Shown piece by piece: positions 342 through 61,800 of a DNA stretch of 64,000 nt (positions within the stretch are counted from its first letter, which is position 1; each line of letters begins with the position of its first letter). This DNA is from Candidatus Liptonbacteria bacterium. GTDB taxonomy: Bacteria > Patescibacteriota > Minisyncoccia > UBA6257 > 2-01-FULL-56-20. The DNA is taken from assembly GCA_016867315.1 (NCBI GenBank), contig VGJV01000002.1, forward strand, positions 51,386 to 115,385. Reading direction: 5' to 3'. The translations under genes were made by a program, and so were the position numbers. A model generated the notes under the pieces. It worked only from the letters and a program-made list of their open reading frames with translations, made no database searches and was not told the DNA's origin.

Positions 342-731
342 TTAAAGCTGCGTGGAAGTAACGCTTGGCCGGAGCGAACACCCGCTTGCCTCGCTCAACC
401 TGGCAAGACCCATTTCTCCCTTAAATCTCCTTCCATCCTTCACAATCCAAGTAGGATATCCCTTCACTCGCTGCGCTACACAGGCCTGCGGATCCTTCGG
501 ACATTCTATATAAGGAATGAGTCGGAAAGAATCTCCCAACGCGCGCTTCTCATTTTGGCAATGGGGACACCAGTCTGCTCCGTACATAGCAAACCCCTTA
601 TCCGCGAGACACTGCGCAAACCCATCATACTCCCCTGACGCAGGTACGGGAGAATAGAGCAACCACCACAATCCTGCCGCAATTCCCACAACCAGCAACG
701 CACTAAGAATATGCTGTTTTTTATTATTCAT
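342..731 (-). CDS. Membrane-anchored thioredoxin-like thiol-disulfide oxidoreductase
   Basis: 129 aa, N-terminal TM helix and a WCPHC (CxxC) active-site motif. The stop overlaps the upstream gene by 8 nt, so it is in an operon with ccdA. Confidence 0.7.
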   Translation of the reverse strand: MNNKKQHILSALLVVGIAAGLWWLLYSPVPASGEYDGFAQCLADKGFAMYGADWCPHCQNEKRALGDSFRLIPYIECPKDPQACVAQRVKGYPTWIVKDGRRFKGEMGLARLSEASGCSLRPSVTSTQL

Positions 732-1351: not shown

Positions 1352-2134
1352 TTAGAAGATAAACACGAATATTCCAAGAAGGATCGCCAAGAGCCCTCCC
1401 CACAAGCGCAATCGACCTGTTTCCCGCTTCTTCCAATCCTCAATTTTAGCGAGCACGCCTTTGTCACTCCCCAAGGCAAGCATCACGACGAGCGGCGCTA
1501 CGAAAATGAGGTTATAGAGCGCGAGATAGCCGAGCCCCATGAGATATGTTCCTTGATCATGCAAGAGCCCCAACACCAAGAGGTATGGCCCTCCCGTACA
1601 GGGAAACTCGCACACTCCCACTAATGCCCCCAAGAGAAATGCCGCTGGTAGCGTCGATCTCTCCATAAGCGCAGCCATTGGCCGATGGGAAATAGATGGG
1701 ATTTTAAGCTTGATGGGAAACGAAGGAAAAAAATGATTCACGAGACTCAGGAATCCCGCCGCGATCATAAGCGACGCCGCAATCTTCGCCATGAAATGGG
1801 GCGTGTTGAAGAGATGGAGCGCCTGGAGAAGCCCTATTCCAATAAGGAAGTACGCGGCAAAAATCCCCGCGATATAGAACGCCCCTACGGTGAGAATTTT
1901 TCCTCGTGCCGACCCCAAACTCACGAGAAACGCTATCGTAAGAATAAGCACCGAAAACGCACACGGATTGATGCTATCTAAAAGAGCAGCTACCAACACG
2001 AGAGGCAAAAGCCATTTTCCTTCGCCCGAAAGATTCCAGAGCGCCTCGGTTCCAATATTCCCTGTCTTGATTACGATCACAGTTCCTAATACTGCGACCG
2101 CTAATCCTACGAGAATCCAGAATTTCTTGGTCAT
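1352..2134 (-). CDS. ccdA: Cytochrome c-type biogenesis / thiol:disulfide interchange membrane protein CcdA (DsbD core family)
   Basis: 260 aa, six or more TM segments, conserved Cys in TM helices (INPCAF ... CEFPCTGGPY) typical of the CcdA/DsbD family. Confidence 0.8.
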   Translation of the reverse strand: MTKKFWILVGLAVAVLGTVIVIKTGNIGTEALWNLSGEGKWLLPLVLVAALLDSINPCAFSVLILTIAFLVSLGSARGKILTVGAFYIAGIFAAYFLIGIGLLQALHLFNTPHFMAKIAASLMIAAGFLSLVNHFFPSFPIKLKIPSISHRPMAALMERSTLPAAFLLGALVGVCEFPCTGGPYLLVLGLLHDQGTYLMGLGYLALYNLIFVAPLVVMLALGSDKGVLAKIEDWKKRETGRLRLWGGLLAILLGIFVFIF

Positions 2135-2135
2135 A

Positions 2136-2633
2136 TTAGGGAGTTACCTGCGCGGTAAAGCGAAGCTCGAATGGAAGCCCAGTCTCCGTTTCTACAAACA
2201 CTGCCCGTTCGATTTTTCCTACCCCTGCCGGCCCATGCGCCGCCGGATCAAATACTGCCTCCACCACAGCTTCTTCCTGAGGAGCCAAAGTAATATCGAT
2301 TCCCGGAATAAAGCCGTGGCCCGGCATCCCATATGGCCCTACTTTTTTGGCCAAAGTCATGAGCTGCGCCGTAGTACACATGCATGACGTATAAAGTTTC
2401 GTGAGTCTCACGGGGGTGGAACTACCGTTTCGAATACTGAATACATGCTTAACTTTCCCCGCCGCCATTGATATAGATCCGAAATCGAAACTCGTTTCCA
2501 CGGCGCTCAACGCCGACGTCCCCGAAACTATAGGGGCGACACCCGGAGAAGATTGTTTTCCCCAAATAAAAAGCGCTCCTATTACCACTACCACAAACCC
2601 GATTCCAATAAGTACATTTTTAGAATTGTCCAT
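2136..2633 (-). CDS. Hypothetical membrane-anchored exported protein
   Basis: 165 aa, N-terminal TM helix, and a start overlapping the ccdA stop (same operon). No recognisable catalytic motif. Confidence 0.5.
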   Translation of the reverse strand: MDNSKNVLIGIGFVVVVIGALFIWGKQSSPGVAPIVSGTSALSAVETSFDFGSISMAAGKVKHVFSIRNGSSTPVRLTKLYTSCMCTTAQLMTLAKKVGPYGMPGHGFIPGIDITLAPQEEAVVEAVFDPAAHGPAGVGKIERAVFVETETGLPFELRFTAQVTP

Positions 2634-2717
2634 GTAAGTAGACCCCGTGTAAACAAAAACCTGCCTCCCAAAATTTCGACGAAGTGCGCGCCGACATGCG
2701 CACTGATTCGCCCGAAA

Positions 2718-3125
2718 TTAAAGCGCTAAGGCAGGATCCCTTCGTTCGTGCAGTTTAAGCCAACGAGCGAAACGCTCAGGAAGCTTCAAAAAATTTCCTT
2801 GTAAAGTCTTCAAATAGAGAGAAAGCGCTCCCTCGAAAATATGAGAAGCAATGTGCTGCAGCGCCATCCAACCCGCAAAAAGCAGGAGAAGCGCGGCGAA
2901 CACTCCCCATGCACTCATCGTGGCGAGCGAAAAACCTTTCAAGGCCTCGAGATAAAAACCGGAAGTGGAAACCGCATCCCCTGGAGGACACGCCACACCC
3001 CCATGTGCACTCGCGGCCAAACATCCTCCTCCGTGATTCGCTCCATGATTCATACCGAAAGCCCCCAGCACCGCGATGGATACGAAAGCTAATATAAGAA
3101 ATACAGCTCCTGCTTTCCGGCTCAT
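2718..3125 (-). CDS. Hypothetical membrane protein with a His/Gly-rich segment (possible metal binding)
   Basis: Trimmed to the MSRKAG start. Two TM segments and an HGANHGGGC...AHGGVACPPGD motif. Confidence 0.4.
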   Translation of the reverse strand: MSRKAGAVFLILAFVSIAVLGAFGMNHGANHGGGCLAASAHGGVACPPGDAVSTSGFYLEALKGFSLATMSAWGVFAALLLLFAGWMALQHIASHIFEGALSLYLKTLQGNFLKLPERFARWLKLHERRDPALAL

Positions 3126-3198
3126 ATTCCAATTATAGTATTCTCCCCTAAAAAACAAACCCCATCCATGCGGGGTTAGGAAACCATGCAATTCTACT

Positions 3199-4107
3199 CT
3201 AGCTCTTAAGGTAACGCCGCACTGCGATAAAACTGGAGAGAGCCCCGATACCGATCCCGAAAAGTAATTGATACCCCAAAAGAGTAATGAAGTTCGCGAT
3301 AAAGTATTGGAAAAGGTTCAATCCAGGAATAAATACCGCGAGATATGGGGAAGCAAAGTAAATTGCAGGAGCAATGAAGATAAGACTGGCGACCGCAGCA
3401 ATTGCTCCGGAAATAATGCCTTCAACCATATAAGGGCCGCGCACTAACGCATTCGAAGCCCCTACTACTCGCATAATCCCGATTTCTTCGCGGTTCGAGT
3501 AGATTGCGAGCCGAATAGTATTGAACACCACGAGGCCTGCGATAAGAGAAAGAAGGAGGGTAAGCGTAAACCCTGCTTTATTGACGTTATCGATAATTCG
3601 CGCGAGTCGGTCGATCACCACCTGATTTTTGGCATAACTCACGTTATCGATGTAATTCGAAAGATTCGGCGCGGAAAGATATCGGGCAATAGTCGCATAC
3701 TGTTCCGGCTTCTGAGCCTTGATACTTAAAGAGGCCTGAAAAGGATTGGTATTCAACTCGTTGACAGCCTGGCTGATAACCTGCTCATTTTTATGCGCAG
3801 TTTTAAAAAGCTCGAGCGCCTTGTCGCTCGAAACGTAATTCACGTCTTTCACCTCCGAAAGATTCTCCAGGGATTGTTTGATATTCAAGATCTGATCTTC
3901 GGAAGTATTGTTTTTGAAATACACACTGATATCGATCTTGTCCTGGATGGAAACCACCGCATGCTGAGTCGTAACGCGGAAAAGAATAAGACCTACGAAT
4001 ACCATAAGCGCCAAAATAGTAATAGCCACCGTGGCCGTCGAGAGCCAGCCATTTCGGCGAAAACCTTTGAATCCGAACTGTACGATGCGAAAGACAATAG
4101 TAAACAT
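3199..4107 (-). CDS. ftsX: Cell division ABC transporter permease FtsX
   Basis: 302 aa, four TM helices with a large extracytoplasmic loop, immediately downstream of ftsE. Confidence 0.8.
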   Translation of the reverse strand: MFTIVFRIVQFGFKGFRRNGWLSTATVAITILALMVFVGLILFRVTTQHAVVSIQDKIDISVYFKNNTSEDQILNIKQSLENLSEVKDVNYVSSDKALELFKTAHKNEQVISQAVNELNTNPFQASLSIKAQKPEQYATIARYLSAPNLSNYIDNVSYAKNQVVIDRLARIIDNVNKAGFTLTLLLSLIAGLVVFNTIRLAIYSNREEIGIMRVVGASNALVRGPYMVEGIISGAIAAVASLIFIAPAIYFASPYLAVFIPGLNLFQYFIANFITLLGYQLLFGIGIGALSSFIAVRRYLKS

Positions 4108-32825: not shown

Positions 32826-33452
32826 CTACAACCCCGTAAGCAAAGAAAAAAGAGAATGCATGAGCGGTACAATGAGATCAAACCCGAAGAATATAAAGAG
32901 AAGGAGAAGAATCAGCCCGTTGTGTTCGAGAAAAGTAATGACTGCAGCTCCTTTATCCGTACGCGGCAAAAGTGCATAGAGCACCTTCGATCCATCTAAA
33001 GGAGGCAAAGGCACTAAATTGAAAATAGTGAGCAGAATATTGATCTGCACAATCATCGCAAAGAACACCACGAGCATTGGATTCCCTTCCATCGCGACAA
33101 CAAAACGAAGCAAAATACTGAAAGCCACCGCAAGCGCGAGATTAGACGCCGGTCCCGCGAGTGCTATTTTCGCCGCCGCCGTCACCGGGTTCTTGAGATG
33201 CCACGGGTTGTAAGGTACGGGTTTCGCCCACCCCACGATGAATGTCCCGCCGGATACGAACCAAAGCATCACGGGCAAGAGAATTGACCCGATGGGATCG
33301 ATGTGCGGAATGGGATTCAAGGTAATCCGCCCGAGCATCCGCGCGGTAGGATCTCCCAGCTTCTCCGCCATCGCCCCATGCGAGACTTCATGAATCACTA
33401 CGGAGAACACGAACACCAGCAATTCAAATATAAAAAGTGAAACGTTGTCCAT
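32826..33452 (-). CDS. Site-2 protease family (M50) zinc metalloprotease
   Basis: HEVSHG (HExxH) in a TM helix, plus an LDG motif. Trimmed to the MDNVSLF start because the longer ORF overlaps tRNA-Arg. Confidence 0.75.
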   Translation of the reverse strand: MDNVSLFIFELLVFVFSVVIHEVSHGAMAEKLGDPTARMLGRITLNPIPHIDPIGSILLPVMLWFVSGGTFIVGWAKPVPYNPWHLKNPVTAAAKIALAGPASNLALAVAFSILLRFVVAMEGNPMLVVFFAMIVQINILLTIFNLVPLPPLDGSKVLYALLPRTDKGAAVITFLEHNGLILLLLFIFFGFDLIVPLMHSLFSLLTGL

Positions 33453-33457
33453 AAAAT

Positions 33458-33533
33458 GGTGCGCCCGGAGGGACTCGAACCCCCAACCCCTTGGTTCGAA
33501 GCCAAGTACTCTATCCAATTGAGCTACGGGCGC
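33458..33533 (-). tRNA. tRNA-Arg (anticodon TCG)
   Basis: GCGCCCGTAGCTCAATTGGATAGAGTACTTGGCTTCGAACCAAGGGGTTGGGGGTTCGAGTCCCTCCGGGCGCACCA. Anticodon loop CTTCGAA, and CCA is encoded. Confidence 0.85.
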
Positions 33534-33623: not shown

Positions 33624-34706
33624 TTGAAACCGACCAATAATAAACCGAAAGAAGAACAAGCATTCAACCCAAACGCCGCTGCACTCCCGGATTCCGGAAT
33701 TTTCGGCCTACCATGTGATCCCAAGAAAGATAAAGTGATTATTCTGCCCGTTCCGTTCGAGGCAACCACTTCCTACGGCGGAGGTACCGCGAATGGCCCG
33801 CAAGCGATTTTTCACGCGAGCAAACAAGTGGACCTCTTCGATCCGATCACGGGAAATCCCTACGAAGCGGGCATCTCGATGCTTCTCGAGTCCCGGGAAA
33901 TCATCGCGCTCAATAAAAAGGCTCGCGCACTTGCTCAGCCCATCATCCAAGCAGGCGGAGTGGCACCGGGAAACAAACGGCACGAACGGGATGCCGCAGA
34001 GGTAAATGAAATATGCAACAGGGTCCATCGGAAGATCTATGAGCATGTGAAAATCCAACTCGAGCGAGATAAGATTCCCATTGTGCTTGGAGGAGACCAC
34101 TCAGTTGCGCAAGGTGCAATCGAAGCTTACGCGGAAAAATTCCCCAAACTTGGAGTGCTTCAAATTGATGCACATGCCGATCTGCGAGACGGCTTCGAAG
34201 GATTCGAGTACTCCCACGCTTCAGTCATGCACAATGTCCTCTACAGGCGACTCCTCCCGGGAAGTATCGAGAGACTTGTGCAAGTGGGACTGCGGGACAT
34301 AGGACCCGAAGAACACGAGTGCATTCAAACCGAGCGAACTATGAAAATCAAAGCCTTCTTCGCACACGAAGTGAAACGAGGCGCTTGTAGTCCAAGCTTC
34401 GTTTCGAACATATTCTGGAAAATTGCACAGGCGCTTCCAGACGAAGTGTATGTGTCCTTCGACATCGACGGCCTTGATCAATCCATGTGCCCGCACACAG
34501 GCACGCCGGTTCCCGGAGGGCTCACCTGGGACGAGATGGAACAAATTCTCCAGGCTCTCGTCGAAAATGGCAAACGAATCGTGGGCTGCGACCTGGTGGA
34601 AGTTACACCTGGCCCAACCCACGGCGATGAATGGGATGCGAACGTAGGGGCCCGAGTGCTTTACAAGCTTATCGGCTATATGCTCCTGTCGCAAAAAAAT
34701 AAATAG
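33624..34706 (+). CDS. Arginase-family ureohydrolase (agmatinase or formiminoglutamase-like)
   Basis: GGDHS, DAHADL and SFDIDGLD manganese-binding motifs. Confidence 0.8.
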   Translation: MKPTNNKPKEEQAFNPNAAALPDSGIFGLPCDPKKDKVIILPVPFEATTSYGGGTANGPQAIFHASKQVDLFDPITGNPYEAGISMLLESREIIALNKKARALAQPIIQAGGVAPGNKRHERDAAEVNEICNRVHRKIYEHVKIQLERDKIPIVLGGDHSVAQGAIEAYAEKFPKLGVLQIDAHADLRDGFEGFEYSHASVMHNVLYRRLLPGSIERLVQVGLRDIGPEEHECIQTERTMKIKAFFAHEVKRGACSPSFVSNIFWKIAQALPDEVYVSFDIDGLDQSMCPHTGTPVPGGLTWDEMEQILQALVENGKRIVGCDLVEVTPGPTHGDEWDANVGARVLYKLIGYMLLSQKNK

Positions 34707-34802: not shown

Positions 34803-37664
34803 CTATCTCCCTCCCAAAAGATTCACGAACGGCGCAATGATTGTTCCTAAAAGTGAGGGCTGATTTCTCGAAGACTGCGGAGGTGGCGGAGGAGGTTGCG
34901 ACTCTCCACTAGGAGGGGGAGGAGGTGGAGGTGTTCCCTGACTCGGCTGAGGGTACGTGCCCTGCGGAGGCTGAGGATACATTCCTTGCGGAGGGTACTG
35001 CATTCCTCCCGGCGGCTTAGGATACTGACCATCCATTCCCGGCTGGAAACCCGCCGGAGGATTCATAGGATATTGCCCCGGCTGTCCTGGAGTCCCTGGT
35101 TGACCCGGAAATCCCCCCTGTGGAGGCATGCCTGGAGCTCCCGTCGGGAACTGCCCCTGCATCTGTCGGTTCACTTCTCCCTGAAACCGCTCTTGATACT
35201 GTTTCTGAAACTCCGCGTTGTACTGCTGATTAAATTGCTGATTGAACTGCTGCCTATGCTGCTCGTTAAATTGCTCCGGCCGTTGCCCACTCTCCACCGG
35301 AGGCCCGATCGGGCGCGGAGGAACTCTCCCCGGCTCTATGCGGCCGCCTTCCTGTCCAGGAGCACCGCCGTGTTGATTTTTTCCTTGCTCCATCTTGCCG
35401 TAACACTCTCCAATAGCTTTAGCGACTTCGGGAGAAGGCTCACTTCCTCGGCGCAGTTTTTCCAAATCCGCGGCCTCCCCCAGCATAGTCTTCACGCACT
35501 GGAGTACTGGCTCTGGTGCAGGACCCCTGCCCTGCACAGCACCTTGTCCTTGCGGATTCCCCGGAGGTCCGAACCGCTGGTCAGGTTTGCCTCCAGGAAA
35601 ATTCCCTTGTCCCCCTCGGGAACCTGGCAAACTCTCAAAACACTCCTGCATGGCTTTTCCTATAGCTCCTCCCCGGCCACCTCCCGCACGCAATGCTTCC
35701 CCACCTACTTCCCCTCCTATTTTTCCTTTCACGCAGGAAAGCACTTCAGGAGGTATCCCATGCTGAGGCCCCCCTTTAGTTCCCTGCTCTCCCGCGAAAC
35801 TTCCTTGCCCAGGTCTCTGCATTTTCCCGAAACACTCCCGAATGGCCTGTCCCAGAGACCCCCGGTCCGATTCCGCACCGCGCAGCTTTTCCTCAGTAAC
35901 CTCACTACCTGTTTTTTCTTTTACGCACGAGAGCACCTCATGAGGAATTCCTCCCCGCCCGAATGCCTGCCCTTCTCCAGACGGAAATCCTTGCGACCCG
36001 GGGCCACTTGGAAACCCTCCTTGCTCGCCTCGCTCATACCTAGCAGGCGAAGCGGGCCCGCCCTCTCCTCCTGCGGGAGGACCGAAGTGTTCTTGAGGCC
36101 GGAACTGCTCGAAACAACCCCTCATAACCGAAGGGTCTAATCCTTCGACAAGTTCCCCATTTTGAAGCTTTTCGAAATTCGCACCAAGCTTCTCCTTGAA
36201 ACAACTCGCCACTTGAGGTGGAGCCGTACGAAGGAACCGCTGAAAGTCGTGTGGTTGAGGCCTTCCGAATCCTCGACCAGCACCCCCTTGTCCCGGCTGT
36301 CCAGGGCCGCCTGGCTGCCCTCGGAATTCTCCTCCCGGACCACCCGGTCCCCCGGGCTCTCCGAAAAATCCTCCTTTTTCAAATTGCACACTTTGGAAAC
36401 ACACTCGGAAGGTATCCGCGATCTCGGGCGTAGGCGCTTCTTCTCCTTTCTTTATCTTCTCAAATTTATCCCCGAGTTTTTCCTGAATACAAGCGATCAC
36501 CCCCTTCGGGGCATCCTTGAACATATCCTGCGGACCTTTGCGATGTCCGAACTTCTCAAAACACCCCCCCACGCGCTCTCCAATTTCCGGCCCAGGAGTA
36601 AGTTTCCCAGATTCAATATCTTCAATCACATTTGGGCCCACCACCGATTTCAAACAGGCTGCCACTTCTGGAGGAGCATGCTCAAGGCCCGCACGCACCC
36701 GCACAAAGCCCTCTTTGGCCCGCCGCACTTCTTCTTTGCTGATAAATCCATGTTCTTCCGCAAATTTAAAACAGGCTTCTCGATTTGCCGGATCATTACA
36801 GTACGCCTCACACGCCCGGGGAGAGCTACAACCTCCCGGCCCCTTGCCTCCAGTTTTGCGAATCCGTTCTGCTTCGTCTCGGGACATAAACCCAGCTTTT
36901 TCTGCAAACGCCACGCATTCTTCTCCATGCGCCGGCCCATTGCAATATGCCTCACACGCTTCCTTGGATTTACAGCCGCCAGGAGTTTCCCCTTTTTTCG
37001 CAAGCTCCATCACCTTCTGGAACTGCTCAGGAGAAAGATCGTCATCTCCGTGCTGCGGCCCAGGCCCTCCCGGCCGCGCCTGTCCTTTGGCCTGAATAAT
37101 CCCCGCCTTCTTTGCAAACTCAAAACACTCTTCCGCATGGGAAAAATCACTGCAATATGTTTTACATTCCTGCTCGGATTTACATCCTCCAGGCGTAGTA
37201 CCTCCCGCCTTGATATGCTTTAATACCCTCTCCCCCTGTTCCAAATCCCTGCTTTTAATCCCCTGTTTCTTCGCAAAACTCACACATTCTTCTAAATGAG
37301 TGATATCGCTGCAGTACGCTTCACATTCCCCGGGGCTTTTACACCCACCCGGTCCCCCCTTCGCCACCGCCTGGGAGAATTTTTTTGCCCGTTGAGCCTC
37401 TTCTTTATTCATCAATCCGCTCTTCTCCGCAAACGCCACGCACGCTTCTACATTCGCGGGATTTTCACAGTATTGTTTGCAGGCCTGTTTATCCCCGCAG
37501 TTCCCCAATTCCGGGATGGGAAAAATAATACCGCTCGCTTGAATCTGCGCGTCCGTGGGGCCTTCCGGCACATTCGATTCTTGGGCATACACTGCCCCGA
37601 AAAATCCCGCCCATACAAACGCGAACCCCACCAGACCAAGCCCAATGCGCAATTTGATATTCAT
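34803..37664 (-). CDS. Large secreted modular protein with cysteine-motif repeats and Gly/Pro/Gln low-complexity regions; putative surface/adhesin protein
   Basis: Signal peptide (MNIKLRIGLGLVGFAFVWAGFFGAVYA). Five modules of CX5CX3CX8C (e.g. CKSPGECEAYCSDITHLEECVSFAKK), six modules of about 45 aa with two Cys (PPEVLSCVKEKxG...CFExx), GGPGGPGG/QPG linkers, a Q/N/F-rich then P-rich tail, and a hydrophobic C-terminus. Confidence 0.75.
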   Translation of the reverse strand: MNIKLRIGLGLVGFAFVWAGFFGAVYAQESNVPEGPTDAQIQASGIIFPIPELGNCGDKQACKQYCENPANVEACVAFAEKSGLMNKEEAQRAKKFSQAVAKGGPGGCKSPGECEAYCSDITHLEECVSFAKKQGIKSRDLEQGERVLKHIKAGGTTPGGCKSEQECKTYCSDFSHAEECFEFAKKAGIIQAKGQARPGGPGPQHGDDDLSPEQFQKVMELAKKGETPGGCKSKEACEAYCNGPAHGEECVAFAEKAGFMSRDEAERIRKTGGKGPGGCSSPRACEAYCNDPANREACFKFAEEHGFISKEEVRRAKEGFVRVRAGLEHAPPEVAACLKSVVGPNVIEDIESGKLTPGPEIGERVGGCFEKFGHRKGPQDMFKDAPKGVIACIQEKLGDKFEKIKKGEEAPTPEIADTFRVCFQSVQFEKGGFFGEPGGPGGPGGEFRGQPGGPGQPGQGGAGRGFGRPQPHDFQRFLRTAPPQVASCFKEKLGANFEKLQNGELVEGLDPSVMRGCFEQFRPQEHFGPPAGGEGGPASPARYERGEQGGFPSGPGSQGFPSGEGQAFGRGGIPHEVLSCVKEKTGSEVTEEKLRGAESDRGSLGQAIRECFGKMQRPGQGSFAGEQGTKGGPQHGIPPEVLSCVKGKIGGEVGGEALRAGGGRGGAIGKAMQECFESLPGSRGGQGNFPGGKPDQRFGPPGNPQGQGAVQGRGPAPEPVLQCVKTMLGEAADLEKLRRGSEPSPEVAKAIGECYGKMEQGKNQHGGAPGQEGGRIEPGRVPPRPIGPPVESGQRPEQFNEQHRQQFNQQFNQQYNAEFQKQYQERFQGEVNRQMQGQFPTGAPGMPPQGGFPGQPGTPGQPGQYPMNPPAGFQPGMDGQYPKPPGGMQYPPQGMYPQPPQGTYPQPSQGTPPPPPPPSGESQPPPPPPQSSRNQPSLLGTIIAPFVNLLGGR

Positions 37665-37685
37665 TGGATAAATTAAGAGAATCCC

Positions 37686-37958
37686 TTACTCAAAGGGATT
37701 CTTGTATGCATCCTTTATAGGATTCGGCGCCGGCGCTAATTCCGGCACTTTGTCTTGAAGCGGATTCTGCGCCTTCTCCAAAATTGAAGCTCCTAAACTA
37801 GAAGTAGATACCGCTTCAGTCTGAGCAGCAGAAGGAGCTGCAGGAGCCTGCCCCGTTGAAGGAGAAGGAGAAACATCTGCAGAGAGCACATACCACACTG
37901 CGACCGCTGCCGCGATAATGAGTATGGCCCCCACCACAATTATTTCTTTCTTATTCAC
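37686..37958 (-). CDS. Small membrane-anchored Ala/Pro/Ser-rich protein (GTG start inferred)
   Basis: TM helix (IIVVGAILIIAAAVAVWYVL) then a low-complexity tail. The track ORF extends upstream over repeat copy 4, so it was trimmed to the GTG at 37958. Its stop is 21 nt before the large-protein start. Confidence 0.35.
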   Translation of the reverse strand: MNKKEIIVVGAILIIAAAVAVWYVLSADVSPSPSTGQAPAAPSAAQTEAVSTSSLGASILEKAQNPLQDKVPELAPAPNPIKDAYKNPFE

Positions 37959-38157: not shown

Positions 38158-39276
38158 CTACTTAGCAAACGACGAATACCACACCTCGTTATCCCAGCCC
38201 CAATCATTCCGCATTCCTCCGGAAATCCACATCCGATCATGAAACACCACCGCGCCATGGTCTTCTCTTCCAAGCCACGAGGGGTCTCGATCGGTTTTTT
38301 CCCAAGTAACCCCATCTTTCGTAAACCATACATCATTCACTCCGCGAGATTCCGGATCATTCAAACGCCCCAAACTCCAAAGCGCGCCCTCAAAAGAAAG
38401 AAGTGCATGCCCCTGCCGTTCAGCCCAAGGCGGAGTATTCGTGAGTAATCTCCACGCACTTCCATTCTCGGAAACCCACACATCGCGGAACGTGCGCCCC
38501 GCAAGGTCCATACCTCCAGTAAGATATAGCCTATCATTAAACACAGCGACTGCATGATCCCAGCGGGGAATCCATTCTGCTTTGCCAGTTTCCTCCGTCC
38601 AATACACCCCATCCGCCGAAGACCACACATCGCTAAGAGTGCGATCTCCGTACCGCACTCCTCCGATAAGCCAAATTTTGTCGCGCCATACAAGGAGCGT
38701 ATGTCCCTCGCGAGGGATCCAGGGCGCCGCAGAAACCATCTGCTCCCATTGCCCCCCATCCTCGGTAACCCATATATCGTTTTTATATCCTACCTCAGGC
38801 CCCCACCCACCCATCACCCAAAGTTTTCCCCTGAATTCCACTGCCTGAATCGAACGCCGTTTTCCCCAAGGAGCGTGATCTAAAACTTTTTCCCATGTAA
38901 GTCCCGTCTTAGAAGTCCATACGTCATCAAAATACGGCGCTTCCCAATATCGCACATGCTCACCCGCGGCATCCCGAGTAACCAACCCATTGCCGTTGAG
39001 TCCTCCCATCACCCATAAAGCATCTTTGAATACGACAAACGCATGCGAATCCCGCGCCTCCCACATTGGAGATTGAGGCGCCCGATACCACTCGAGCGTA
39101 GGAAGCAAAGGCTGAGGTTCGGGCGGCAAAGGAAGAAGCGCAGGAGCAAATGCCTGTGGCAAAAGCGCCGGTTCATAAATCCCAAGTTCTTTTAAAACTC
39201 CTTGTCGCCAAAATCCAAAAACGATAAGTATCGCGCCTAGGCCTATTCCGATGGCCACCGCCTCATGGTGTCTCAT
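38158..39276 (-). CDS. Membrane-anchored Kelch-repeat beta-propeller protein
   Basis: N-terminal TM helix (AVAIGIGLGAILIVFGFW) then six or more Kelch-like repeats (...WVMGG..., ...IWLIGG..., ...LYLTGG..., ...MWISGG... with a recurring DVW). Trimmed to the MRHHEA start. Confidence 0.7.
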   Translation of the reverse strand: MRHHEAVAIGIGLGAILIVFGFWRQGVLKELGIYEPALLPQAFAPALLPLPPEPQPLLPTLEWYRAPQSPMWEARDSHAFVVFKDALWVMGGLNGNGLVTRDAAGEHVRYWEAPYFDDVWTSKTGLTWEKVLDHAPWGKRRSIQAVEFRGKLWVMGGWGPEVGYKNDIWVTEDGGQWEQMVSAAPWIPREGHTLLVWRDKIWLIGGVRYGDRTLSDVWSSADGVYWTEETGKAEWIPRWDHAVAVFNDRLYLTGGMDLAGRTFRDVWVSENGSAWRLLTNTPPWAERQGHALLSFEGALWSLGRLNDPESRGVNDVWFTKDGVTWEKTDRDPSWLGREDHGAVVFHDRMWISGGMRNDWGWDNEVWYSSFAK

Positions 39277-39283
39277 ATGAAAT

Positions 39284-41083
39284 TTAATTTTGCCCCATCC
39301 AATCATAAGAAGTATCAAGCCACGCGAGGAGCTTCTTAGCCTCTCCAAAACGATCTTCGGACTCGAGAAGGACTCCAATAATATACCCCTGCCCCTTTGG
39401 ACTCTCTGCCGCGAAGATAAAAGCTTGTCCTGCCCGCGGCGTCTCTCCGGTTTTGCCGGCAAAAACTTCGAAAGGAGCATTCGAAGAATTACTCAGTAAT
39501 GCGTTGGTAGTACGAACGCGATACGTATTGCCACGCGTGCTCCGTACTCGCGTGTCAGGTGTTCCTAATATAGTGCGAAGCGAGGGATGCACCTCGAGCA
39601 CCTCGCGGAAGAGGGCGACAAGCTCGCGGGGCGCAGCTCGATTCAGCGAACTGTCTTTTGCACCATCAAGTCCGGTCACATTAGAAATCGCTACGGCGCT
39701 AAGCCCCAACCTTTGAGCCTCTTCTTTCATAAGCTCGATAAACTTTTCATTCCCTATAGCGTCCGCAAGCGCCCGCGCCGCCGGATTCGATGACTCTATA
39801 AGAAGCAACGAAAGCATCTCTTCTATGGAAATAGCTTCTCCCGCTTCAAGCCGAGCCTGCCCCTCCTTCACCGCTTCCCGAGCAGCCGACAAAGAAACGG
39901 TGATGAGTGTTCCTGGCGGGAAAAGTTTCTCCGCTACAATAGCCGTAAAAAGTTTAGTGATACTCGCGATAGCGCGCGGCACTCGAGACTCCTTTTCCAT
40001 AAGAATCTTGGGCTCGCCTTCCCATGGTATATACACTGCGAGTGCCCCTTGAGCGGAAAGTTCTAACCCGCTGGCTGGACCACGAAATCGGGGATAGCGC
40101 TCATCTCCATGCAAGGCAAGATATTCCGCGGTTCCCACGTTGCCCTCTTTGATCCCTTTCGCAATTGCCTCCCCTACAAATCGATAATGCCAAGGCTCAT
40201 GCATATAGGTCGTGATGGTTTCCCGCTCGGGCGGATAAGATTGTACAAATCCAAATTCTGCAGCATGCCTCTCCAACCAACGCCCCTCTTCGGTTTTATG
40301 GAAATTCAAAGGCGTCCCTCTAAACCCTACGGTAAATCCTGTGAGATCTACCGTAGTTCCTAACTGGTGCTCAGAAGCCCCGGGAGGAGCCACGGCGTTG
40401 CGTGCGCGCTCTCCCTCAACTGCGAGCCAATACTCAAAAAGAGCTTTTTGCACCTCTGCCGAGCGGAAACCGGAACTCACTCCCAACTGAATATTTTCTT
40501 TTTTGGCTGCCTCGAGCATTCGCCTGAGAGCTCCTGCGGTCTCCTCTCGTAAACAAATAATTCCATTTGTCCAAATTCCCTTCGCTTCAAGCACCACAAG
40601 ATCCGCAGGCGCATACGCGTACGGCAAGGAATGCTCCTTGTCTACGCGATACAAAGAAAAATCCGGATATGCTCCTGAAGGTTTGGGACACACTACGTCA
40701 AAATACAGTCTATTTATGTGCTCTCGAGTTTCGGCATCAAATGTTCCCGTCTCCGGTAAATTTTCTTCTTTCTGCAAAGCACGCACTGCGGCCTGCGTCC
40801 GGTCGCCGTAAAAACCGGAAACATCTTTTGCATTCAAAAAGTTTTGCTGCGCAAGTGTCCGCTGCAGCAATGTCACATCTGCACCTCGAATTCCCTTTCC
40901 CAAATCCCGAGTAAAACCAGCTCGAGCCCGCCACTCCCGCGCGGCATTCACTTCGAGCCGAAGCAACGCCGCCACCTGCGACTCGGAAATTTCCTCCTCA
41001 ATAACCGCCTTATGCACGAGAAGTCCGCTAAGGATTACCGTAATCCCTACCGCCCCTCCGATCCACATAAACCATCGACTCAT
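39284..41083 (-). CDS. Multidomain cell-wall enzyme: peptidoglycan-binding domain, M15 (VanY-like) D-Ala-D-Ala carboxypeptidase, and S11 serine DD-carboxypeptidase (PBP5-like)
   Basis: TM anchor. PG_binding_1-like segment (DVTLLQRTLAQQNFL...GFYGDRTQAAVRALQ). VanY-like SGFRSAEVQ ... EHQLGTTVD. Serine peptidase SITK (SxxK) and SSN motifs. Trimmed to the MSRWFMW start. Confidence 0.7.
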   Translation of the reverse strand: MSRWFMWIGGAVGITVILSGLLVHKAVIEEEISESQVAALLRLEVNAAREWRARAGFTRDLGKGIRGADVTLLQRTLAQQNFLNAKDVSGFYGDRTQAAVRALQKEENLPETGTFDAETREHINRLYFDVVCPKPSGAYPDFSLYRVDKEHSLPYAYAPADLVVLEAKGIWTNGIICLREETAGALRRMLEAAKKENIQLGVSSGFRSAEVQKALFEYWLAVEGERARNAVAPPGASEHQLGTTVDLTGFTVGFRGTPLNFHKTEEGRWLERHAAEFGFVQSYPPERETITTYMHEPWHYRFVGEAIAKGIKEGNVGTAEYLALHGDERYPRFRGPASGLELSAQGALAVYIPWEGEPKILMEKESRVPRAIASITKLFTAIVAEKLFPPGTLITVSLSAAREAVKEGQARLEAGEAISIEEMLSLLLIESSNPAARALADAIGNEKFIELMKEEAQRLGLSAVAISNVTGLDGAKDSSLNRAAPRELVALFREVLEVHPSLRTILGTPDTRVRSTRGNTYRVRTTNALLSNSSNAPFEVFAGKTGETPRAGQAFIFAAESPKGQGYIIGVLLESEDRFGEAKKLLAWLDTSYDWMGQN

Positions 41084-41302
41084 ATGAAAATAAGAGTACA
41101 CGACAAGGAAGCTCCTCGCCAGGAGTTTTTGCCAATTGAAGAGAGTTATGGTATACTTCCGCGGTAAGTGTTCTCGGAGGTTTTCTGAACCCAAGACACC
41201 TTGAGTGTTGTAAGGCGAGGAACCAGAAGAGAGAGGGGGTCTCGAGCAATTTGCTCTTAATTAATAAGACTCCAGGTCGCCTTACAGCCTATACGAAGAA
41301 AA

Positions 41303-56083: not shown

Positions 56084-56968
56084 CTAGGGACTCCAATTGA
56101 TAATAACTTCGTTTACGGTAGGAGAAGTAGTTTGCATCCGATTTGATACAAGAATCACTCGATAGCGGAAATATCGCTTACCACTGTGCAATGTGTAATC
56201 CACCCGTTTCGATACCCCAGGACTCGTAGCATAGTACGTATTCGATGTCCCATCCGATCCCACATACGTCCAAGGACCGCTCGAGGAATTAGAAGTAGCG
56301 AATTGGAAACGCACCTGAGTCTCCGACGGCTGGGTACCCTGCCAAAGTACCGAGTTGATCTGCACCCCGCCTGAAACTCCCGTATCAAATGTGGAAGAAT
56401 CTAATGTCGCGATTGCTGAAGTTGCCACCCAAGAAGCCTGCAGTCTGTAATTCGAAACAAGACAACTATTGGAGGTATACTCGCTATTGTTTGCGCAATT
56501 AAAACTAATCCATCCTGCAACATCATTCCAAGCGTAACCGGAAAACATCCCGTTATCCGCATCAATAAGCACCTGATAATTAGAAGTACCGCATCCATTA
56601 TTATTATGGCAATCGAAGCTGATCCAACCGTATTGATCATTCCATGCATAGCCGCTTAAATTCCCGATGCCGTCATTCGTTACCTGATAATTGGATTGAC
56701 TGCAAATATTACCGCCAGAAGTAGTAGCGCAATCGAGGGAAATATCTTCTACCGAAGAACTTGCATATCCTTTGAGAAACTGGGAGTTCACCTTCACGGT
56801 GTCATTGATATAAAAGTCCATCCAGCCTATAAGATCATTCCACGCATAACGATACGTAGAATCAACATCCGTGGCGGCGCGAGCCACAGAAATGACAAGC
56901 AGGAAAGAAGCTACTCCGCATGCGATCCACAATATGGGGTTGGAATTTCGAGGAGAGGGCGATCTCAT
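56084..56968 (-). CDS. Secreted WND/GW-repeat protein in the pilus operon (putative pilus-associated adhesin)
   Basis: Signal peptide. Four repeats of YAWND(L/Q/V)xGW(M/I)(D/S)F(x)C spaced about 40-45 aa apart. Ser/Thr/Asn-rich. Confidence 0.6.
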   Translation of the reverse strand: MRSPSPRNSNPILWIACGVASFLLVISVARAATDVDSTYRYAWNDLIGWMDFYINDTVKVNSQFLKGYASSSVEDISLDCATTSGGNICSQSNYQVTNDGIGNLSGYAWNDQYGWISFDCHNNNGCGTSNYQVLIDADNGMFSGYAWNDVAGWISFNCANNSEYTSNSCLVSNYRLQASWVATSAIATLDSSTFDTGVSGGVQINSVLWQGTQPSETQVRFQFATSNSSSGPWTYVGSDGTSNTYYATSPGVSKRVDYTLHSGKRYFRYRVILVSNRMQTTSPTVNEVIINWSP

Positions 56969-61227: not shown

Positions 61228-61800
61228 CTAAAGCGCAAAGAGATTTCTCACCGACTCCGGAATGAAGTATTGCTCCAAAATTATAACAGACATCGCGATA
61301 GGCACCCACCAATAATAAAGAGGAGCTCGTCCCCAGTGAAACGCGGCGTACACTCCCGTAAGTAAAAACCCGATTAACAATACCGCCACTCCATACCATA
61401 AAAAAGTAGGGAATCCCGCAAGGAAAAAACACAATCCTAAAAGGGCCGCTTCTCCCTTTTCAAAAAAACGATCCCTGCAATAGCAATTGAGCCAATGTGC
61501 CACAAAAGCCAGTGACACTCCCGCTACCAACGAAAAAATCCAAGGAGCAAACAACCGTCTTACATAAAGGAGAAAATAATCTGATGACTGATAAGGGGGA
61601 AGAAAAAAGCGGGTAACTTCATTTCCCTGCCATGCCCAATAAAGAGCGGATGCCCAATACATAAGCACCCCCCCAATGATCACACCTCCAGCAATCCAAA
61701 ATACCTTCACGGTCCTTCGAAAAGAAGAAAGGGGGAGCAAACACTGCAACACAAAACAAGCTGAGAGAAGGGCGAAGCCCAGCTTGTCGGTGAGAAACAT
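61228..61800 (-). CDS. Polytopic membrane protein, possible short prepilin peptidase (A24-like)
   Basis: 190 aa, five or six TM helices, located between pilB and the major pilin. Canonical GGDVKL is not clearly present (FEKGEAALLG). Confidence 0.35.
   Translation of the reverse strand: MFLTDKLGFALLSACFVLQCLLPLSSFRRTVKVFWIAGGVIIGGVLMYWASALYWAWQGNEVTRFFLPPYQSSDYFLLYVRRLFAPWIFSLVAGVSLAFVAHWLNCYCRDRFFEKGEAALLGLCFFLAGFPTFLWYGVAVLLIGFLLTGVYAAFHWGRAPLYYWWVPIAMSVIILEQYFIPESVRNLFAL

Follow-up and report, generated by a model that had tools for sequence, protein, structure and literature searches.

The Cys-repeat locus

The window, that is, the whole stretch of 64,000 nucleotides from a Candidatus Liptonbacteria metagenome-assembled genome (MAG) that was analysed here, contains a gene for a 953-amino-acid protein built largely from repeated cysteine-containing modules and, directly upstream of it, a gene for a 90-amino-acid membrane protein (Table 1). 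We refer to these as the Cys-repeat protein and its partner, and to the two genes together as the cassette. The product of the large gene is identical to the NCBI entry FJY98_02110, a hypothetical protein encoded by a Candidatus Liptonbacteria MAG, and the placement of this genome in the Parcubacteria group agrees with a preliminary description of the same DNA, which had counted the organism among the Candidate Phyla Radiation (CPR). That description gave no strand for the open reading frame (ORF), which lies on the minus strand, and it missed two things: the partner gene, which is new here, and the membership of the Cys-repeat protein in a family of approximately 1,900 sequence clusters that includes DPANN archaea. 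The sequences of the gene and of its family are already public as hypothetical proteins.

Table 1. Positions in the window of the cassette, of the parts of the Cys-repeat protein, and of a thioredoxin-like gene
Feature	Position	Strand	Details
Cys-repeat gene	34803..37664 (stop codon included)	minus	953 amino acids; NCBI hypothetical protein FJY98_02110
Sec-type signal peptide, residues 1-27	37584..37664	minus	MNIKLR, hydrophobic core, VYA followed by QE; no twin-arginine motif
Five 4-Cys modules, residues ~49-326	36684..37520	minus	CX5CX3CX8C; three helices each in the model
Six 2-Cys modules	35379..36680	minus	Residues 329-376, 384-430, 480-525, 572-619, 636-683, 715-762
Low-complexity spacer, residues 763-935	34860..35378	minus	P 25%, Q 19%, G 16%
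Conserved C-terminal peptide, residues 936-953	34806..34859	minus	...PSLLGTIIAPFVNLLGGR; hydrophobicity below transmembrane level
Partner gene	37686..37958	minus	90 amino acids; inferred GTG start; partner-profile match E = 2e-25
Membrane-anchored thioredoxin-like protein	342..731	minus	129 amino acids; WCPHC; related to the thioredoxin-like domain of bacterial VKOR

Two kinds of cysteine modules

The protein begins with a signal peptide, as had been proposed before, which to judge from its sequence is of the Sec type, and homologues were found to have equivalent AxA-type N-termini. Its 32 cysteines are divided between five 4-Cys units (20 cysteines) and six 2-Cys units (12 cysteines), and hidden Markov models (HMMs) of the modules recovered exactly five and six modules with E-values of 1e-18 to 1e-28, those for the 4-Cys modules being between 1e-25 and 1e-28. 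The 4-Cys units follow the CX5CX3CX8C pattern exactly, with the first cysteine at residues 56, 108, 161, 231, and 279; the pattern and the number of repeats were thus described correctly before, but the period is approximately 52 amino acids rather than 45. From 1,275 instances of this module the consensus PGGC.SKeeCeaYC.dp.[HN].EEC..FAEkhGlm..EEa was obtained, and the traits that accompany the cysteines, a tyrosine or phenylalanine before Cys3 and F-A..G after Cys4, are found in the window protein as well. All 20 cysteines of the array were invariant among 100 homologues, which is far beyond chance, and conservation of the cysteines was 99-100% over the 1,275 instances of the 4-Cys module and 540 instances of the 2-Cys module.

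When residues 28-335 were modelled with AlphaFold2 from a 100-sequence alignment, the mean predicted local distance difference test score (pLDDT) was 87.9 and the predicted template modelling score (pTM) was 0.76. The modelled array is all-helical. Helix 1 carries Cys2 and Cys3, which are separated by one turn, helix 2 carries Cys4, and Cys1 is in the loop before helix 1; the linker between modules 3 and 4 is the sole low-confidence or disordered stretch of the array. The register of the helix hairpins in this model suggests that the disulfides of each 4-Cys module are most likely C1-C3 and C2-C4.

The six two-Cys modules were also present as previously reported, with a C-x29-31-C spacing, first cysteines at residues 337, 392, 488, 580, 644, and 723, and the consensus APPEV..CLKeKLG...fekIqSG...PtPEiGe..R.CFEkF. 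Modules 2 to 6 are spaced by flexible linkers rich in glycine and proline, among them the GGPGGPGG/QPGQ linker noted before (approximately residues 431-470), while modules 1 and 2 are just 7 residues apart. An AlphaFold2 model of residues 325-530, which cover three of these modules, had an overall pLDDT of 79.6 and values of approximately 85-94 within the modules; each module is modelled as three helices with the cysteines on helix 1 and helix 3, and the one long linker that was modelled (residues ~434-466, between modules 2 and 3) had a pLDDT below 50 and appears disordered. A common origin of the 4-Cys and 2-Cys modules was rejected, the hhalign probability being 0.3%.

The remainder of the protein is the low-complexity spacer, which holds the Q/N/F-rich block QQFNQQFNQQYN and polyproline runs of seven (residue 912) and six prolines (residue 924), followed by the hydrophobic tail SLLGTIIAPFVNLLGGR, all of which had been recognized in the preliminary description. 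The term "collagen-like" used there did not hold: a bacterial collagen-like protein needs tens of uninterrupted G-X-Y triplets, the longest run found here has 5, and there was no match to the Pfam Collagen family.

Integrity of the gene

Repetition at the protein level raises the concern that the ORF was joined wrongly during assembly, as a chimera, or that it is non-coding and owed to the repetitive DNA, and the former had been put forward as something that would undo the interpretation. We regard the chance of either as negligible, since this explanation is effectively refuted already by several observations. At least 8 contigs, which come from independent samples and different assemblers (ENA, JGI, and Logan), encode the identical 953-amino-acid product and have the same neighbours. 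The internal DNA repeats of the gene are only 20-45 nucleotides long and 67-76% identical, and because the modules are so strongly diverged as DNA, neither repeat collapse nor chimerism is expected. Furthermore, relatives that share 50-57% identity have their modules in collinear order (5 + 6 or 5 + 7), and the array cysteines are invariant. The Cys-repeat ORF is a genuine, correctly assembled gene. Two long antisense ORFs (34896..36140 and 36162..37223), dismissed as artefacts in the preliminary description, do exist, and both are in register with the sense codons of the gene. In that register antisense stops can arise only from TTA, CTA, and TCA sense codons, which make up only 5 of the 953; the antisense ORFs are compositional by-products of codon usage.

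Comparison with known families and folds

The suggestion that neither cysteine module is a described domain was borne out for the curated resources that were searched. The Cys-repeat protein gave no match to Pfam at E <= 10, nothing meaningful in NCBIfam, and no match in sequence and profile searches of the PDB, and Foldseek found no significant relative of the fold, the best E-value being 0.7 with the array as query and 2.7 with the 2-Cys region. In a search of full-text literature, papers on CPR and DPANN organisms were found to mention cysteine-rich proteins in other contexts, and none describes the Cys-repeat family. For the modules, the partner, the cassette, and their distribution in CPR and DPANN genomes, no curated domain, solved structure, or describing paper was found. 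The names "YppG family" and "proline-rich", which some sources attach to relatives, seem to reflect the low-complexity C-terminal regions and not the cysteine modules.

Several known systems resemble the Cys-repeat protein in part. Like the Cys-repeat protein as proposed here, the Helicobacter proteins HcpA, HcpB, and HcpC, which consist of disulfide-bridged Sel1-like repeats (SLR), are secreted tandem alpha-helical repeats stapled by disulfides, and in both cases the repeats build an elongated helical array with a supposed role in interactions. However, there is no sequence relationship. An Hcp repeat is a helix pair of approximately 36 amino acids with two cysteines, while the module described here has approximately 52 amino acids, three helices, and four cysteines, and Hcp proteins have neither an NPF-tailed membrane partner nor a conserved C-terminal peptide, both of which are present here. 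Membership in the SLR/Hcp family was rejected, there being no match to Sel1 (Pfam PF08238) at E <= 10, and so was membership in the SLR/tetratricopeptide repeat fold, there being no significant similarity to solved structures. With the LPXTG/MSCRAMM-type proteins of Gram-positive bacteria the Cys-repeat protein shares the overall plan: a signal peptide, a distal N-terminal domain array, a repeat stalk, a proline-rich wall-spanning spacer, and a C-terminal hydrophobic segment that ends in a basic residue. The domains of those proteins are, however, Ig-like beta folds in place of alpha-helical cysteine modules, and anchoring seems here to need a separate small membrane protein.

The third resemblance, to cysteine-stabilised helical mini-proteins such as the plant defensin-like or AtDEF-like proteins, nodule-specific cysteine-rich peptides, and alpha-hairpinins, which are also secreted and cysteine-rich and carry a helical CX3C pair cross-linked to other cysteines, bears on an alternative explanation, in which the protein is a polyprotein precursor cut into defensin/SCREP-type disulfide-rich peptides with an antimicrobial or signalling function. 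Tandem disulfide-rich modules of approximately 50 amino acids behind a signal peptide would suit such a precursor, and some homologues give marginal matches to the Pfam families AtDEF-like (PF25052) and Nodulin_late (PF07127). These labels were nevertheless rejected: only 3 of 7 homologues tested reached 27.6-33.5 bits, at most a few bits over the Pfam cutoff of 25, three of the five stretches matched by AtDEF-like begin in the signal-peptide or N-terminal region (residues 3-24), and the window protein matches neither family. In contrast to free peptides of approximately 50 amino acids, the three-helix units form a rigid multi-module array, for which the pTM of the model points to modules packed in a fixed way against each other; the consensus of the module shows no conserved site for processing, and the conserved C-terminal peptide and the membrane partner favour an intact, tethered protein. 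A role as a peptide precursor is therefore very improbable.

A conserved membrane partner

The partner consists of a basic N-terminus, one transmembrane (TM) helix, a linker rich in alanine, proline, and serine, and a tail of the form '...LGASILEKAQNPLQDKVPELAPAPNPIKDAYKNPFE*'; the tail of the window partner reads '...NPLQDKVPELAPAPNPIKDAYKNPFE', and the peptide that carries the NPF motifs is '...NPIKDAYKNPFE'. In the window its ORF ends 21 nucleotides before the start of the Cys-repeat gene. Of 82 loci, 77 have directly upstream a gene for a partner of approximately 90 amino acids with a tail that ends in "NP…YKNPFE", while one of the five exceptions lies at a contig edge, and the gap between the two genes was between -4 and +55 nucleotides in the 70 loci for which it was measured. 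It is the only strongly conserved neighbour, the others being variable housekeeping genes. In an alignment of 30 partner sequences, NP...NPF at the extreme C-terminus was invariant. The partner family comprises 101 detectable clusters, all annotated as "hypothetical", whose NCBI locus tags are consecutive with those of Cys-repeat genes. All three archaeal (DPANN) loci (L001, L082, and L085) contain the partner, which in L085 is an uncalled ORF with a 4-nucleotide overlap with the large gene.

Searches of Pfam and NCBIfam with the partner gave nothing meaningful, and weak matches to FliL and to type VII secretion proteins were discarded as noise from the TM helix. NPF motifs are recognized by EH domains, which are EF-hand-like, cytosolic, and eukaryotic. 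There is no homology to that system here, and purely as an analogy it illustrates how one protein might recognize, through a small helical domain, an NPF peptide borne by another.

A 10-bp stem-loop (37678-37702, minus strand; minimum free energy -14.2 kcal/mol, z = -3.4) spans the stop codon of the partner and lies in the 21-nucleotide gap, and at the equivalent position of the closest relative (L005) there is still a stem, of 14 bp and with different bases. As a feature of the family it was rejected, having been found only in these two loci, with a median z of 0.19 over 77 loci. It is thus local to Liptonbacteria, where it might tune the relative expression of the two genes.

The C-terminal peptide and anchoring

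Complete members of the family usually end in S[LF]LG.[IVL]L.P[FL]...NLLGR. A hydrophobic C-terminus had been noted for the window protein, and a short hydrophobic tail is indeed present; a classical TM anchor, however, was rejected, the hydrophobicity of the tail being too low. In the best 19-residue window on the Kyte-Doolittle scale it reached 0.87, compared with medians of 1.09 for the tails of the family and 2.81 for the partner helix. A sortase-, exosortase-, or archaeosortase-type signal was likewise rejected, for the last 30 residues, PPPPPPQSSRNQPSLLGTIIAPFVNLLGGR, contain no LPXTG, PEP, PGF, or GG motif and only a single terminal arginine, and the sorting-signal models of NCBIfam did not match the protein. 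No other ORF in the window carries the tail, which was therefore not accepted as a general sorting signal. Its features are more those of a peptide for docking or for an interface.

In a subset of the family (P0049, P0058, P0061, P0098, P0102, P0109, P0115, P0251, P0329, and P0384) the hydrophobic tail is replaced by an alternative, conserved C-terminal cysteine motif, '...CEYAG..GS.NYN.CKQC[FY]P.[RK]'.

Size, distribution, and variation of the family

Relatives numbered 424 when the array was used as the query and 927 with the full-length protein, and a single-module HMMER scan of 1.84 billion representatives found 1,899 clusters at 50% identity, 1,083 of them at E <= 1e-30. A relative is encoded in 387 species-representative genomes. 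Every named bacterial match belongs to a Parcubacteria-type lineage (Lipton-, Colwell-, Wolfe-, Jorgensen-, Kaiser-, Lloyd-, Nomura-, Yanofsky-, Wildermuth-, Harrison-, and Sungbacteria, and Paceibacterota); the label "uncultured Candidatus Saccharibacteria" borne by many third-party MAGs could not be checked. The few archaeal matches were confirmed by gene context. For instance, the neighbours of P0107, on a Nanoarchaeia contig of 623 kb, include Cdc6/Orc1 and both PolD subunits, and P0116 is next to aIF5A and a histone-fold gene in a MAG of the Aenigmarchaeota.

The architecture is conserved, with usually 5 (range 4-13) 4-Cys modules and 0-7 2-Cys modules per protein, so that the six of the window protein are near the top of the range. 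In three of the nine longest family members a Laminin_G_3/ConA-like lectin domain follows the array (E = 1e-25 to 1e-27), and because of these fusions the array can be taken to serve in extracellular proteins that present binding domains. This variation bears on whether the protein could be a purely structural part of the envelope, such as a spacer or strut reaching from the membrane to the wall or surface layer (S-layer), that binds no specific ligand or host. Such a role would be in keeping with a gene that is single-copy in the window and near-universal among related species, with housekeeping neighbours, the str operon among them, and with the rigid array, the proline-rich spacer, and the conserved membrane partner. 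However, the module numbers vary widely, the C-terminal regions vary greatly, and some members carry lectin domains. Variable modules and lectins are more typical of interaction proteins, and the structural explanation is weakened for this reason. S-layer proteins, moreover, are usually poor in cysteine. We therefore consider it unlikely that the protein is only a structural element.

Disulfide or metal chemistry

Near the first position of the window a gene outside the cassette encodes a small membrane-anchored thioredoxin-like protein, which matches the thioredoxin-like domain of the Synechococcus VKOR protein (PDB 3KP9) at E = 1.7e-17 and the Pfam Thioredoxin family with just 16.9 bits. The overlapping upstream ORF (724-1251) had no Pfam match, and the window yielded no VKOR domain. 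Judging from its sequence, this VKOR-type protein is a candidate component of an envelope disulfide-forming machinery and provides supporting context for the chemistry of the cassette. A DsbA/MdbA-like family, often adjoining VKOR, has been reported to be widespread in CPR bacteria (Méheust et al., bioRxiv 10.1101/335083). In an Aenigmarchaeota locus (L085, GCA_016198705) a secreted thioredoxin-like protein with a WCPIC motif and a lipobox-like LSGC and a DsbD_TM/CcdA-type membrane protein (both within 2116-3365) adjoin the archaeal cassette in divergent orientation; the same MAG has a second copy of the cassette (L082). Classically, a DsbD/CcdA-thioredoxin pair constitutes a reducing pathway.

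These observations are relevant to a different explanation of the 4-Cys modules, namely that they form extracellular metal-binding or redox sites (Zn, Cu, Fe, or Fe-S) and that the protein is a metal scavenger, store, or redox relay. Each module has four invariant cysteines, which could converge on one site, two of them lying at positions i and i+4 of one helix, the third on the next helix, and the fourth in a loop; a histidine or asparagine position is conserved in addition (H 52%, N 43%). The organisms are mostly anaerobes, and the archaeal cassette adjoins the DsbD_TM and secreted thioredoxin pair. On the other hand, the protein matches no metal-binding family of Pfam or NCBIfam, we know of no metal or Fe-S motif with this cysteine spacing, and the would-be fifth ligand is an asparagine in 43% of modules. 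The second type of module has two cysteines only, placed in the manner of a staple on helices 1 and 3. The signal peptide is of the Sec type and lacks a twin-arginine motif, which argues against export of a pre-folded, cofactor-loaded protein, and the genome encodes the apparently oxidising VKOR-type protein. A metal-binding or redox function is thus quite unlikely, and we infer that the chemistry of the modules is that of disulfides.

Proposed organization and role

Taken together, our interpretation, to which we assign a probability of roughly one half, is that the Cys-repeat protein is a Sec-exported, disulfide-stapled helical stalk that is tethered to the membrane via its partner and serves as an envelope scaffold or adhesin. 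After signal cleavage, its N-terminus would be an all-alpha and rigid array in which each of the five three-helix modules has two disulfides. This would be followed by six three-helix modules, each with one disulfide stapling helix 1 to helix 3 and most of them on flexible linkers rich in glycine and proline, then by the spacer rich in glutamine, asparagine, and polyproline, and finally by the short hydrophobic C-terminal peptide. The Cys-repeat gene would be co-transcribed with the gene for the single-pass membrane partner, the tail of which would face outward and end in the NP...NPF motifs. Together with the C-terminal peptide of the large protein, the partner could supply the true membrane anchor or dock, while the spacer would cross the wall and the distal end would present the 4-Cys array, to serve as a scaffold or as a surface for binding. 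Such a stalk may function in envelope architecture or in attachment to a host or substrate. The proposal of the preliminary description that the protein is an adhesin or host-interaction factor is plausible, given the extracellular architecture and the lectin-fused relatives, though unproven.

Several points weigh against this interpretation. The interaction between the partner and the large protein is suggested by gene adjacency and by a weak correlation (rho 0.42, not corrected for phylogeny), in that loci with more 4-Cys modules tend to have more NPF motifs in the partner. The lectin fusions are found in other members of the family and not in the window protein. The signal peptide and the topology were judged by eye, and the DsbD/CcdA-thioredoxin pair beside the archaeal cassette would fit disulfide isomerisation or thiols that are kept reduced.

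Other features of the window

An arginase/agmatinase-family gene (33624-34706, plus strand) lies directly downstream of the Cys-repeat gene, and in the Nanoarchaeia locus another gene of this family (L001, 15263-16069) is approximately 6 kb away from the cassette. This neighbour is common to only 3 of 82 loci, and its presence is probably a coincidence. Upstream of the cassette are genes for a Kelch-repeat beta-propeller protein (38158-39480, minus strand) and for a fused VanY/penicillin-binding-protein-type D-Ala-D-Ala carboxypeptidase that carries a peptidoglycan-binding domain (39284-41194, minus strand), an arrangement that the closest Liptonbacteria contigs (L086 and L087) share but that is not family-wide. 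The longest reading of an M50-peptidase ORF (32826-33518) overlaps tRNA-Arg(TCG) (33457-33533, minus strand), and the true start is probably the ATG that gives a protein of 208 amino acids (32826-33452).

The translated ORFs of the minus strand between approximately 55.5 and 62.4 kb of the window point to a cluster of the type IV pilus-like kind. It includes small ORFs with pilin-like N-termini, such as 'GFTLIELLVV' and 'GFTILEITLVLF', and ORFs of 570 and 401 amino acids in the places typical of an assembly ATPase and a platform protein. Two cysteine-containing ORFs of this region (56084-56968 and 61228-61800) had no Pfam match.

Implications

The family is abundant and, apart from the occasional lectin fusions, has no curated domains, and its two confidently folded module types have no solved relative. 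Three families can be put forward as candidates for curation, namely the 4-Cys module, the 2-Cys module, and the partner with its NPF tail. Much of microbial diversity belongs to the CPR bacteria and DPANN archaea, which are thought to live attached to other cells, and almost nothing is known of the surface molecules with which they attach beyond type IV pili. It is possible, and we propose it only tentatively, that the cassette encodes a two-component surface apparatus, not described before, of ultrasmall, host-dependent prokaryotes, shared between Parcubacteria and DPANN archaea by horizontal transfer, in which the NPF repeats of the partner would dock on the 4-Cys modules and which would function in episymbiotic attachment or in the organization of the envelope. 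The presence of the same two-gene unit in archaeal genomes makes it a candidate for an adaptation to the ultrasmall lifestyle that is shared by the two radiations, or for gene exchange between them.

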